Virus record (IMG/VR): IMGVR_UViG_3300033153_013649
Location: 1 to 64,000 of that record
Source of the DNA: a virus
Length of the DNA stretch: 64,000 nt
Direction: 5' to 3' (one strand)
Positions 53,114-57,999 of the stretch are shown piece by piece. The notes beneath the pieces are model-generated. The model saw only the letters and a program-made list of their open reading frames with translations, did not search any database and had not been told where the DNA came from. The translations under genes were made by a program, and so were the position numbers. Every line of letters starts with the position of its first letter. Within the stretch, counting starts at the first letter, position 1.

Positions 53114-53142
53114 TTGACTTTTAATTTCTTTATTAGTATATT
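53114..53142 (+). promoter_or_regulatory. sigma70-like promoter of the topoisomerase gene
   Basis: TTGACT-17-TATATT with upstream A-tract. Confidence 0.8.
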
Positions 53143-53166: not shown

Positions 53167-54759
53167 ATGAGCCAAATGAAACAAAATAACTTTAAAGTTT
53201 TAAATGAAGTAGAAGCAGTACACCTAAGACCCGAAATTCTACTTGGTACTACAGAAGTCATAAAAAAGTCTTTCCTGATTTATAACCCTAAAACTGAAGA
53301 ATATGATTCTATTGAATTTGATTATTCGGAGGGATTTTTTCGCTTATTCGAAGAGGCGGTAACTAATTCAATAGATGAGTTTGATAGAAATAAATCCGTC
53401 TCCTCAATACGAATTGAGATCGGGGATGACTTTATTAAAATTCGAGATAATGGTGGGGGATATCCTCTTCATAAATATAAATTTGAGGGGAAAGAAAAAT
53501 ATGCTCCTGAATGGATATTAACTAAATTGAATTCAGGGGTAAATTTTGAGGATATAGATCGTAATACTGTTGGTATGAACGGAGTTGGAATTTCCCTTGT
53601 TAATTTTCTTTCAAAGAAATTTATTCTTCGAACAAAAAACAAAAAATCTCTTAGATATGTCCAAATATTTCGTGACTATTCTAAGAAGAAAACTGAACCA
53701 AAATTTAATGGGAAGGTTTCAGACCATCAATTCGATGGAACAGAAATTATTTTTTATCCTGATTTTGAATTATTTAGATTAGATAAATCTATTCTTAAAG
53801 ATTATATTCCTTTGATGGAAGAATATTTTAGAAAACTTTCTATGGTTTATCCTAAAATCAAATTTTATTTTAATAAAAAAAGGATTAAAACAAGTCAGAA
53901 ACAGACTATTAAAGCTCTTATTAATGGAAATATAATTTATAAAGAAATTACAGATAGCGCTACTATTGCCTTCGGTCTTAGAAGAGATGAGTCAGGGCAA
54001 GATTTCTTTATGATAAATTCGAAACCTATTGAGAGCTGGACGTCTTTTGATATGCCTTTTACATATAACTTATTTAATAATATTAGGGAAAAATTAAATA
54101 AGAAATATAAGCTTAAGATTTCGAGGAATACCTGGTTAAATGAGAATATTACGAGAGTTGGAATATTCAAAGGCCTAAATGTTAAATTTAAAAATCAAAC
54201 AAAGGATATTCTTGCTAGATTTGATTCCTCTGATTATCTCTCGTTTGCTTCGAAAGAAAATATTGAAAGAATAGCTCGAGCCTTTATTAATAATCAAAAA
54301 TTTGTTGAAGCTTATCTTGAATTTCATGCTTCTAAAGATAATCTTGAAGCTAAGAAAAAATTAAAGAAGATAAAAAAACAATTTATTGATAAATTAATAG
54401 AGGCTACCTCAAAAGATCCAGAGGAAAAAATCTTGATAATAACAGAAGGAAATTGTTTAGAAGAAAATACTGAAGTATTAGTTTTAAATCATAATAAATT
54501 ATTTAATAAAAAGATAAAAGAAATTAATATTGGGGATATAGTTTTAACACATAAGAAAAGATTTAAAAAAGTTATTAATAAAGTAGCTAGGAAAAAAAGA
54601 GGTTTTTTAGTAAAATTAAAAAACGGGGAACAATTTATAGCTTCTTCTGATCATAAAATGTATGTTTTTAACAGTTTAAAGAAGGAATTCGAATTTAAAA
54701 AAATAAAGGATCTAAATTTAGATTATGATAAATTGGTTAAACATAATGAATTATTATAA
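53167..54759 (+). CDS. gp39: type II topoisomerase large subunit, N-terminal part (GHKL ATPase) fused to split-intein N-fragment
   Basis: E...NSIDE, DNGGG, GMNGVG; reaches IITEGN then CLEENTEV...(intein). Confidence 0.93.
   Translation: MSQMKQNNFKVLNEVEAVHLRPEILLGTTEVIKKSFLIYNPKTEEYDSIEFDYSEGFFRLFEEAVTNSIDEFDRNKSVSSIRIEIGDDFIKIRDNGGGYPLHKYKFEGKEKYAPEWILTKLNSGVNFEDIDRNTVGMNGVGISLVNFLSKKFILRTKNKKSLRYVQIFRDYSKKKTEPKFNGKVSDHQFDGTEIIFYPDFELFRLDKSILKDYIPLMEEYFRKLSMVYPKIKFYFNKKRIKTSQKQTIKALINGNIIYKEITDSATIAFGLRRDESGQDFFMINSKPIESWTSFDMPFTYNLFNNIREKLNKKYKLKISRNTWLNENITRVGIFKGLNVKFKNQTKDILARFDSSDYLSFASKENIERIARAFINNQKFVEAYLEFHASKDNLEAKKKLKKIKKQFIDKLIEATSKDPEEKILIITEGNCLEENTEVLVLNHNKLFNKKIKEINIGDIVLTHKKRFKKVINKVARKKRGFLVKLKNGEQFIASSDHKMYVFNSLKKEFEFKKIKDLNLDYDKLVKHNELL
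54454..54756 (+). mobile_element. split intein N-fragment (101 aa)
   Basis: Block A CLEENTEV, IKEINIGDIVLTH, block B-like ASSDHKMY, then stop codon. Confidence 0.9.
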
Positions 54760-54816
54760 CGTTGCCTCCCTCAGCTCATATTAAAAAACTTAGATTTAAT
54801 AAATAATATTAAGAAT

Positions 54817-56013
54817 ATGAAGATCGAGGGAATTAAAATGAAGGATAAATTTAAAATAGTAATTAAAACTGATAAAATGAAAAAGTATATTCATGAATAT
54901 ATGAAATATGAAATGATAAATAACAACCATTTTTCAATTATAGGTTTACTTAAAAATCATATTCATAAAACTAAAGGAATTTCTTTGGAAGAGTATTTAT
55001 CTAAGCAAAATAAAATTCGCAAGTGTAATTTCTGTAATAATTTTAGTAAAATTGTTGGATTTTCTTTCGATTCTTTTAAATCAGGAACATTATTTATTTC
55101 AAATATAAAATATAAAAAAAATTTTTATTATTGCTATAGTAAGGATTGTCCCGGAAAGAAATTAAATCCTAATAGTGTTGAATTTGTTTCTAAATCTAGA
55201 AATATTTCAAACGAAGAAGCTTTGAAATATATTCATAGGAGAAATAAATCCCCCTTTTATAGAGAAAACCATAATTCTTTAAAAGAATATAAATCTTATC
55301 AAAGACGAGATGAAAAATGGTTTATTGAAAATAATAAATCTTTTGATAAATTCAAAAAGAGATTAAGATATATTAATACTTTAGATTATTTTATTGAAAA
55401 ATTAGGTAGTAAAGAATTAGGATTAGCGAAATATTTAGAAATAAATAAAAGAAAAGATTCAATGTCATTTAATCATTATTTGAAGAAATATAATAATAAT
55501 TATATTGTAGCGAGAAAAGAATATAATAAAAGAATAAAAAAATGCTGTTCTAATTTATCTCCTTTTATTTGTAACGGGGTTTCAAAAGAATCTATTAAGG
55601 TATTATTAAAATATTATAAATTTTTTAGAAGACAGAATATTGATAAGGATAAAATATTTATAGGATTAAAGGGGAGTTCAGAATATAATATTTTATATAA
55701 AACCAAGGAGGGAAATAAAAGATTTTTTTATGACTTTACAATACCTGAAATAAAATTAATAATAGAATATCACGGAGAGAAATTTCACCCAAATCCTAAA
55801 TGGAGATTTGAAAATATAAACAAGTGGAATAAATGGAGGGGGATATTTGATAATTTAAATGTCGAGAAAAGGTATAAATTAGATTTACTAAAGAAAAAAG
55901 AAGCTGAAAAATCTGGCTTTAAAGTTTTTGAAATATATTCTTCTGATAATAAAGAAGAAAAATATGAGGAAATTATTAATTGGTGGTATTTAAAGGAAAA
56001 CAAAAATGAATAA
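54817..56013 (+). mobile_element. free-standing Vsr-like PD-(D/E)XK endonuclease gene between the split-intein halves
   Basis: FFYDF..KLIIEYHGEKFH...D..KK..A...GF.VFEI; Cys/His-rich N-terminus; true start may be ATG 54838 (GAGGG RBS). Confidence 0.8.
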
Positions 56014-56131
56014 TAATTTTAAATTATTAGAAATCGACTCAATAGAAGAGATAGAAGAAGTTGAAATGATAGATCTATCTGTTCAAAAAGATGAAAGTTT
56101 TACTTTATCGAATGGTTTAATTTCTCATAAT
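56006..56131 (+). mobile_element. split intein C-fragment (42 aa)
   Basis: Blocks F/G ending His-Asn followed by Ser+1. Confidence 0.9.
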
Positions 56132-56641
56132 TCGGCGGCTGGAGCATTTAGAAATGTTCGTAATAGTAAAATTCATTCTATATTACCTCTTAAAGGTAAA
56201 GTTCCAAATGTTAAGAAATTAACTCTAAAAGAAGTTTTAAAAAATCCTTCCTATCAAAATATTATCGGGTCACTCAGATTAACAGGTGATAATTCAGATT
56301 TAAGACACGGTAAAGTTTATATCGCAACAGATACAGATCCAGACGGGAAACATATTCGAATTCTTTTAATTCAATTTTTTGCAAAATTCTTTCCTGAATT
56401 TATTGATGAAGGTAGATTGTTTATTTTAAATTCTCCTTTGTATGAATATAAATTAAACAAAACTTTGAAATATTCTTATGGGGAGAAACCCCCTCCAGAA
56501 GCTACTGATATTAGTTATTTTAAAGGATTAGGTTCGAATACTAAAACTGCTAATAAAGAGATTATGGAAAATCCTAAGCTCTTATTAATAAAAGATTCCA
56601 AAGAATTAAAGAAAATATATAGAGAACTTTATGATTATTAA
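56006..56641 (+). CDS. split-intein C-fragment fused to topoisomerase II TOPRIM domain (gp60-like part)
   Basis: MIDLSV....F.LSNGLISHN|SAAG, then PLKGKVPN, ATDTDPDGKHI and YFKGLGS. Confidence 0.93.
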   Translation: MNNNFKLLEIDSIEEIEEVEMIDLSVQKDESFTLSNGLISHNSAAGAFRNVRNSKIHSILPLKGKVPNVKKLTLKEVLKNPSYQNIIGSLRLTGDNSDLRHGKVYIATDTDPDGKHIRILLIQFFAKFFPEFIDEGRLFILNSPLYEYKLNKTLKYSYGEKPPPEATDISYFKGLGSNTKTANKEIMENPKLLLIKDSKELKKIYRELYDY

Positions 56642-56721: not shown

Positions 56722-57999
56722 ATGGAAGAAATAAAAAGGTGGTATAAAGAATACGAAATTAAAACTGTATTTGATCGAGCTGTACCTTCGATTATGGATG
56801 GTTTTAAACCGGTTCAAAGAAAGATTTTTTATACTGCTCTTAGTAGGCTTAAAAGTAAAATGAATACAAACGCCTTTAGTGGGGCAGTAAAAGAATATTC
56901 TAATTATCATCACGGTGATATGTCGATTGTTGCTACAGTTAATAATATGGTAGCTGAATTTAGAAATAATTTTCCTATATTTTTAGGGTATGGGAATTTT
57001 GGAGATAAATTAGAACATACTCCCGCAGCCGCACGATATACAGAAATTTCTTTGAATCCAGAATATTTGAAATATATGGTAATGAATGAAATATTGGAAT
57101 ATGAAATTCAAGACGATAATAAAATACATGAACCAAATTATTATCTTTTTACTCTTCCAATGGTTCTTATAAATGGAACCAGAGGTATAGCAGTTGGAAT
57201 GAAAACGGATATTCTTCCATATAAACTTTCTGATATTAAAAGAAACGTAAAACAGGTAATTAATAATAAGAAACAAACCCCTCTTATTCCTTTCTTTCCT
57301 CAATTTAAAGGTAAGGTAAAAAGAGAAAATTCTAAATGGGTTCAATATGGAAATATTGAACTAGAAAATTCTACTACTATTAAAATAACTGAATTAACAA
57401 CTAATTATGAAAGTGTTAAATATCTTCAAGTATTAGAAGAGTTAAAAGAAAATAAAGTCATTTATGATTATGAAGATAATTCTTCAGATAAAGTAGAGAT
57501 CGTTGCTAAAGTTACTAAAGAAGTATCTAAAAAAATTAGAAACAAGCTTCATAAAACTTTCAAATTAGTTTATAATCTTCAAGAAAATATTAAAGTACTT
57601 GATCCTTCCGGAACTAAGGTTTTAGAATTTAATACCCCAGAAGAATTAATTGAAACTTTTGTTCTAGAAGTTCTTAAAAAATGTGATAGATATAGAATTG
57701 AAAAAATGAAGGAATATGAAAAAACAATTGATAAATTAATTCAGAAGATTAAATTTATTAAATTCGTTTCTTGTATTAATAATATTACAGATCTTTCTAG
57801 AAAAGAATTAAAGAGGTTAGTTCTGGAAAAAATAAAGATCGATAGGAAATATCTTGATGAATTTTTACAAATTTCTATATTCGGTTTAACCAAAGATTCA
57901 GTAAAGAAATACGAAAAAGAAATTAAAGAATTCAAAATTAAATTAAATAAATTTAAAAGAATGAATAAAAACGATATATATTTAGGGATGATTATATGA
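56722..57999 (+). CDS. gp52: type II topoisomerase medium subunit (GyrA/ParC-like)
   Basis: RA.P...DGFKPVQR, YHHGD, GNFG, active-site AAARYT, NG..GIAVG. Confidence 0.96.
   Translation: MEEIKRWYKEYEIKTVFDRAVPSIMDGFKPVQRKIFYTALSRLKSKMNTNAFSGAVKEYSNYHHGDMSIVATVNNMVAEFRNNFPIFLGYGNFGDKLEHTPAAARYTEISLNPEYLKYMVMNEILEYEIQDDNKIHEPNYYLFTLPMVLINGTRGIAVGMKTDILPYKLSDIKRNVKQVINNKKQTPLIPFFPQFKGKVKRENSKWVQYGNIELENSTTIKITELTTNYESVKYLQVLEELKENKVIYDYEDNSSDKVEIVAKVTKEVSKKIRNKLHKTFKLVYNLQENIKVLDPSGTKVLEFNTPEELIETFVLEVLKKCDRYRIEKMKEYEKTIDKLIQKIKFIKFVSCINNITDLSRKELKRLVLEKIKIDRKYLDEFLQISIFGLTKDSVKKYEKEIKEFKIKLNKFKRMNKNDIYLGMII

Follow-up and report, generated by a model that had tools for sequence, protein, structure and literature searches.

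How can a phage make the large subunit of its type II topoisomerase when the gene is broken inside the catalytic TOPRIM motif? The question is raised by IMG/VR virus record IMGVR_UViG_3300033153_013649, a complete phage genome of 159,837 bp with direct terminal repeats, of which we analyzed the first 64 kb (positions 1 to 64,000, hereafter the window). The window has a G+C content of about 28% and carries T4-like replication genes. Positions 53167 to 56641 hold three open reading frames (ORFs) in tandem on the + strand. ORF1 and ORF3 encode the two parts of the subunit, each extended by an intein half at the break, and ORF2, between them, encodes a predicted homing endonuclease. We propose that this is very probably a fractured gene with a mobile split-intein cassette, from which a large subunit of the T4 gp39 type would be made by trans-splicing. 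The cassette, inserted in the TOPRIM motif E-G-x|S-A, would comprise the two intein halves, N and C, and between them a free-standing gene for a Vsr-like endonuclease. Its parts and the flanking host sequences (exteins) are as follows, with protein lengths in amino acids (aa).

53167 to 54453, + strand: N-extein, topoisomerase II large subunit residues 1-429 (PHROG 543, Pfam HATPase_c)
54454 to 54759, + strand: intein N half, 101 aa, with Cys1 and block B S-S-D-H at positions 64-67, plus TAA stop (54757-54759)
54838 to 56013, + strand: ORF2, predicted homing endonuclease gene, with GAGGGA six bases before the ATG (fold comparison)
56006 to 56131, + strand: intein C half, 42 aa, ending S-H-N (Pfam Intein_splicing profile positions 118-155)
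56132 to 56641, + strand: C-extein, rest of TOPRIM and C-terminal domain, 169 aa from Ser+1 (SAAG), plus stop (PHROG 543, Pfam Toprim)

The two exteins join exactly. ORF1 (53167-54759, 530 aa) encodes a 429-aa extein ending IITEGN, followed by 101 aa from CLEENTE and then TAA. ORF3 (56006-56641, 211 aa) begins with 42 aa ending LISHN and continues into a 169-aa extein from SAAGAF. When compared with PHROG 543 (topoisomerase II large subunit), ORF1 residues 2-429 match profile positions 21-445 (E-value 2.9e-69) and ORF3 residues 42-208 match positions 445-624; because both matches meet at position 445, the exteins abut without gap or overlap. Pfam HATPase_c covers ORF1 residues 55-151, and Pfam Toprim is detected in ORF3 with an E-value of 4.5e-09. 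By sequence, three parts are thereby assigned to the N-extein: the GHKL ATPase, the transducer and the first strand of TOPRIM, as far as the catalytic Glu of TEGN. This TOPRIM Glu is catalytic in type IIA topoisomerases. An alignment to solved GyrB structures places LISHN|SAAG opposite LVEGD|SAGG, and the break therefore falls within the universal TOPRIM motif, two residues past its catalytic Glu.

Of the unsplit relatives, the closest (P0003-P0007) share 43-53% identity with the N-extein and keep TEG(D/E/Q)SA unbroken. They measure 566-598 aa, and the summed exteins reach 429+169 = 598 aa. An earlier note on this DNA, made from the sequence alone, had predicted a 598-aa product of unsplit-like size, as these relatives bear out; its anatomy of ORF1 and ORF3, with coordinates, counts and the SAAG junction, proves correct to the residue. 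Both the PHROG 543 match and the alignment with unsplit relatives indicate that removal of the intein restores an uninterrupted host protein. Another profile, phrog_28877 (1441 positions, "DNA topoisomerase II"), matches ORF3 (56006-56638) from residue 25, inside the intein C half, and may have been built from intein-containing topoisomerases. When ORF1 alone was used as the query protein to scan IMG/VR, no relative was found.

Are the inserted pieces intein halves? All catalytic positions of a class 1 intein are present in them and are conserved across the family described below. In the N half, Cys stands at ORF1 residue 430, directly after TEGN, and block B reads S-S-D-H; the C half provides the block F Asp and the terminal His-Asn, followed by Ser+1. 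D23, H41 and N42 are invariant across four C halves, and H-N|S is found in all five C halves examined. Among PDB sequences, the N half comes closest to the gp41-1 intein 6qaz, which aligns in the same register over about 50 residues (E-value 0.005). Pfam Intein_splicing aligns with ORF3 residues 5-42 through the last 38 positions of its profile (E-value 0.0023, under the curated cut-off). When the isolated N half is modeled (predicted local distance difference test, pLDDT, 84), nearly all of its top fold matches are Hint domains, among them Hedgehog, gp41-1, DnaB and Npu DnaE, though at weak significance. The N half has a net charge of +11 and the C half of -8; gp41-1 halves show the same charge polarity as the topoisomerase intein (PMC2677866). 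Judged by the gp41-1 and Pfam matches, and by the 206 proteins that an N-half profile finds (below), the assignment of the inserted pieces to an intein is more than chance.

We then asked how widely the arrangement recurs, using an N-half profile (A2, six N halves) against 1.84 billion protein cluster representatives. The search returned 2258 matches at E<=1e-3 and 206 at E<=1e-10; family counts given here cover the best 150 matches. The intein stands directly after TOPRIM E-G-x, as EGx|C(L/I), in 84 of these 150 representatives. A search at this insertion site had been proposed in the earlier note: the site is indeed shared, by so many of the best matches that the element is not rare. Among the 84 representatives, Cys1 is present in 80 (Thr in the other 4), the block-B His in every one, and a Ser or Thr three residues before this His in 77. 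All 84 end 0-85 residues past the profile match, and none runs on into TOPRIM. Contiguous inteins at EGx|SA, searched for as longer proteins with a C half plus junction, were not found, which is weak evidence. At EGx|SA the element is thus seemingly always split, and it is common rather than a curiosity: as far as sequence can tell, it is widespread in metagenomes and uncultured phages and hardly described. In IMG/VR, another 66 loci have both extein matches within a single unbroken frame; in the few that remain, a contig end cuts the locus or the break lies at a different site.

Family members differ in the length of the N half. A short, window-like form of 95-101 aa is found in 8 of the 84 and a long form of 149-181 aa in the other 76 (for example L004:7237-7707, L006:6240-6713, L003:5589-6125, L001:5255-5761 and L015-L018). 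The extra 55-85 residues of the long form match profile positions ~45-93 a second time, which amounts to a partial internal repeat that the window's short form does not have.

Separate ORFs recur in independent assemblies, at twelve loci in all (among them L001, which is GenBank LR756500, L002, L003, L004, L006, L015-L018, L026 and L086). Locus L004, from a 309-kb phage, carries the full cassette with an 8-nucleotide (nt) overlap identical to that of the window; the overlap in L006 is 26 nt. The endonuclease gene is in varied condition: it is frameshifted in L002, reduced to a 113-aa remnant in L006 and likewise truncated to the nuclease domain in L015. Locus L003 belongs to a phage with TAG=Gln recoding, with 17 in-frame TAG codons in the nuclease ORF, and its Vsr-like domain forms a separate 129-aa ORF. 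At L008 (4565-9207), the N part, intein half included, stands before small unrelated genes and a gene for DNA polymerase, and no C part is present within 3 kb; by analogy with cyanobacterial dnaE, we regard this as a dispersed split. Host exteins of the phages at these loci are 26-30% identical to those of the window, and intein stretches such as SFTLSNGLISHN are almost unchanged. Such diverged host exteins around near-constant intein stretches fit a horizontal spread of the cassette.

Some topoisomerase genes are broken at other places as well. In L026 (4477-7069) and L086 (3497-4873), a second split intein, placed ~71 residues into the C-extein and close to the TOPRIM DxD motif, interrupts the C part itself, which leaves the subunit in three separately encoded pieces. 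The GyrA-like subunit may also be fractured: in L001 (7661-9154, LR756500) an N-intein half follows YHHGD|CGDYDT and precedes a Vsr-like ORF, and in protein P0012 an N-intein half follows YHNGN|CLDYDT.

What does the middle gene encode? ORF2 has 391 aa from the ATG behind GAGGGA (54838), which is the likely start, or 398 aa from the ATG at 54817. A four-Cys module at its N terminus is followed by helical repeats and, at the C terminus, by a Vsr-like/EDxHD nuclease domain. No significant match of ORF2 to Pfam was found, and the nuclease domain gave only chance-level or sub-threshold matches to PDB and Pfam sequences. Structure is more informative: the model (pLDDT 84.8) has Vsr 1cw0 as its top Foldseek match (prob 0.99), and residues 254-395 superpose on 3hrl, a DUF559-type endonuclease (Z 9.3), on 3r3p, the catalytic domain of I-Bth0305I (Z 8.8, root mean square deviation 2.8, 95/97 residues), and on E. 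coli Vsr 1vsr (Z 7.8). We collected 62 homologues of 247-466 aa, from phage contigs, which have in common four conserved Cys, the motif RNKSPFY, helical repeats and a C-terminal FFYDF...IIEY.G..FHP block. Across 31 aligned homologues, D306 and E317 do not vary, and H324 hardly varies. A homologous nuclease ORF occupies the same place in L004, L016, L017, L018 and L086. On the strength of its modeled fold, ORF2 is a predicted homing endonuclease of the Vsr-like/EDxHD type. Such enzymes were first predicted from fractured genes (PMC2677866) and were characterized later (PMC3239194).

ORF1 and ORF2 share a reading frame, and the gap between them (window 54757-54837) is a single TAA plus 19 sense codons. 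We considered read-through of this TAA and rejected it, as only 3 of 7 loci (the window, L001 and L016, and not the four others) have their first two ORFs in one frame, which is about chance, and ORF2 has its own ribosome-binding site. The frame shared in the window is thus probably a coincidence. ORF3 lies in another frame than ORF1 and ORF2, has its own ATG and an AAGGAA site, and overlaps ORF2 by 8 nt (56006-56013). Three further features lie in or near the cassette:

53114 to 53142, + strand: sigma-70-like promoter candidate before ORF1 (TTGACT-17-TATATT; consensus scan 10/12)
54760 to 54837, + strand: spacer with a possible hairpin (RNA fold)
56722 to 57999, + strand: intact gp52-like (GyrA-like) topoisomerase II subunit (Pfam DNA_topoisoIV, E-value 8.4e-74, profile 1-419 of 432)

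In the spacer, a stem would pair CCUCCCUC with the ORF2 ribosome-binding site GAGGGA (-15.2 kcal/mol); hairpins in the 5' untranslated region of the endonuclease gene have been described in fractured genes (PMC2677866). Scans for promoters, late promoters and terminators are uninformative in this AT-rich DNA; a terminator-like site between ORF1 and ORF3 was not found, which is weak evidence. The gp52-like subunit is the likely partner of the spliced large subunit.

We can now outline how the enzyme would be assembled. Three proteins would be made, probably from one transcript. The 530-aa N precursor, with its intein half at +11, and the 211-aa C precursor, with its half at -8, would associate through these halves and form one Hint domain. 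Class 1 trans-splicing would follow: an acyl shift at Cys1, transfer to Ser+1, cyclization of the terminal Asn helped by the penultimate His, and an O-to-N shift. Splicing would yield a large subunit of 598 aa, joined as ...IITEGN-SAAGAF... (junction peptide IITEGNSAAGAFR), and this protein would then pair with the gp52-like subunit. The endonuclease would be dispensable for splicing; its role would rather be to cut intein-free alleles in co-infecting phages, so that the cassette is copied into them.

Several points weigh against a trans-spliced subunit. Both halves score under the curated cut-off of Pfam Intein_splicing (PF14890), at 13.3 and 18.2 bits vs 35.8, and the N half matches known folds weakly (Foldseek prob 0.96, E-value 0.065 or worse, high root mean square deviation). 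Four family members (P0137, P0143, P0188 and P0205; TEGD|TIHEDE...) carry Thr at intein position 1, an unusual intein nucleophile, and standard splicing is therefore not required of every member. Sigma-70-like sites number 35 vs 28.8 expected in this AT-rich region, so that the promoter call is not significant, and neither is the hairpin before ORF2 on energy alone (z -1.47). Finally, what the analysis shows is the anatomy of the locus, the seamless meeting of the exteins, the catalytic residues with their conservation, the fold of the nuclease and the repeated occurrence of the split; splicing itself, co-transcription and homing are what we infer.

Three other explanations have to be considered. 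The intein halves may act as a non-covalent docking pair, giving an active enzyme with no peptide bond between the exteins, as in the fractured NrdA of Aeh1 or in T4 gp39/gp60. We judge this improbable. It can draw on T4 gp39 and gp60, a split phage topoisomerase II subunit that works as a complex (bioRxiv 10.1101/2022.08.31.505936), and on the Thr found at intein position 1 in the four members above. However, the residues needed only for chemistry are kept (Cys1 in 80/84, the block-B His in 84/84, H-N and Ser+1 in 5/5 C halves), which argues for real splicing over mere docking; furthermore, an unexcised Hint domain of 143 residues would sit two residues from the catalytic Glu.

A second explanation, which we find a little harder still to accept, is that the gene is decaying: active topoisomerase would no longer be made, and the phage would use host gyrase or topoisomerase IV. 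Endonuclease genes of the cassette do decay elsewhere, by frameshift in L002 and by truncation in L006 and L015, and the locus must therefore be considered evolutionarily unstable. In the window, however, all three ORFs and the gp52-like partner are intact, and the exteins retain the conserved motifs of the family.

The last explanation, that an assembly or sequencing artefact has broken one contiguous intein with an internal endonuclease domain, is very improbable: it would account for ORF1 and ORF2 lying in the same frame with a single TAA between them, but not for ORF3 in a different frame with its own ATG and AAGGAA site, for a three-ORF layout that recurs in more than 10 independent assemblies with varying frames (first two ORFs in-frame in 3/7 loci, about chance), for the 0/84 family representatives that continue beyond the N half, or for L008, which has no adjacent C part.

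A trans-spliced fractured gene thus remains our preferred explanation, and the same phage offers material for comparison. Its genome contains, outside the window, two further split inteins of published kinds, one in a gp41-type helicase and one of the NrdJ type. The latter splits a class II (B12-type) ribonucleotide reductase as GTNP|CLTGDM ... LLVHN|CGEIS (~118600-121400, L009:529-3325). Its halves are separated by an ORF of 274 aa that matches nothing in Pfam and overlaps the C part, and the charges of this intein (N -4, C +3) have a polarity opposite to that of the topoisomerase intein. The gp41/DnaB-type helicase is split as TATSE|C...TKN|S (~90016-91854, L011:355-2193); its halves are 60 nt apart, with no endonuclease gene between them, and its N half matches gp41-1 with an E-value of 6.5e-11. 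The helicase C half ends T-K-N|S, with a penultimate Lys in place of the usual His. The charges of the helicase intein (N +13, C -8) are close to those of the topoisomerase intein (N +11, C -8), and the two are 33% identical in their N halves and 47% in their C halves. The earlier note took the topoisomerase pair for a candidate orthogonal ligation tool; cross-reaction between the two inteins is, however, possible by sequence, given the same charge polarity and the 47% identity of the C halves.

We may also hypothesize, tentatively and with slightly more doubt than confidence, that the EGx|SA inteins form an obligately split family which homing has carried between widely differing T4-like and jumbo phages, and that the three split inteins of the window phage have co-evolved to be mutually orthogonal. 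If this is true, one genome supplies a mutually orthogonal trio including an uncharacterised Ser+1 intein. In any case, three split inteins in one genome, two of them with the same polarity, constitute a ready natural test of orthogonality within one cytoplasm. The family is also of practical interest as a source of candidate natural split inteins whose junction (N|S) is small and polar. The locus would add an essential replication enzyme, broken within its catalytic TOPRIM motif, to the short list of genes dependent on natural trans-splicing.

How does this locus compare with known systems? Cellular GyrB inteins (PMC4760082) also interrupt the homologous subunit of type IIA topoisomerases; unlike the present element, they are contiguous and cellular. 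In T4 genes 39 and 60 (with MobA and translational bypass), a mobile nuclease element breaks the same subunit, likewise inside TOPRIM. The T4 break, however, lies further downstream, at residues 466-473 (bioRxiv 10.1101/2022.08.31.505936), and is associated with an HNH nuclease (MobA) and no intein, and the fragments stay separate, whereas the window has a Vsr-like nuclease with intein halves. The contrast with T4 that the earlier note had drawn therefore holds.

For ORF2, the prototype is I-Bth0305I (PMC3239194, 3r3p), the EDxHD reference enzyme, on which the nuclease domain superposes; both are phage-borne and tied to self-splicing elements. I-Bth0305I differs in residing in a recA group I intron, and the N-terminal region of ORF2 is distinct, with its four-Cys module and helical repeats. 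Among inteins, gp41-1 (6qaz, 6riz) is the closest solved sequence, with the same register, the same charge polarity (N half positive, C half negative) and Ser+1; its host protein is different, and its match to the window's N half is weak.

When full texts of the literature were searched for split inteins in combination with topoisomerase or gyrase, a single description turned up, in a preprint (bioRxiv 10.1101/2022.08.31.505936). There, one sentence mentions that ORF1 of Topo2L in metagenomic MGS5 is split by a "homing intein", with a VSR endonuclease between Hint and HintC. By this description, MGS5 resembles the window in having a phage topoisomerase II large subunit with intein halves around a VSR-type endonuclease; the preprint gives no site, split status, family survey or test.

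The nearest published kind remains the fractured genes with split inteins found in ocean metagenomes, which comprise gp41-1 to -9, NrdA, NrdJ, IMPDH, DnaE, ligase and terminase (Dassa et al. 2009, PMC2677866). That survey reports N halves of 88-105 aa, C halves of 33-54 aa and overlaps of 6-69 nt between endonuclease and C part, and the window's halves of 101 and 42 aa and its 8-nt overlap fall in these ranges. The resemblance extends to the Vsr-like nuclease, the free-standing ORF between the halves, the opposite charges and the phage source. The earlier note had hinted at a new site. Topoisomerase is indeed missing from the eight host types of PMC2677866, where the words topoisomerase and gyrase are absent; on the other hand, the arrangement is of a published kind, MGS5 has been mentioned, and the element is common. 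On sequence grounds, we regard topoisomerase as an addition to the published kind of fractured gene and not as a new kind. What sets the window apart is its host protein and site, the topoisomerase II large subunit at TOPRIM EGx|SA, and a phage whose whole genome is known and carries three split inteins.

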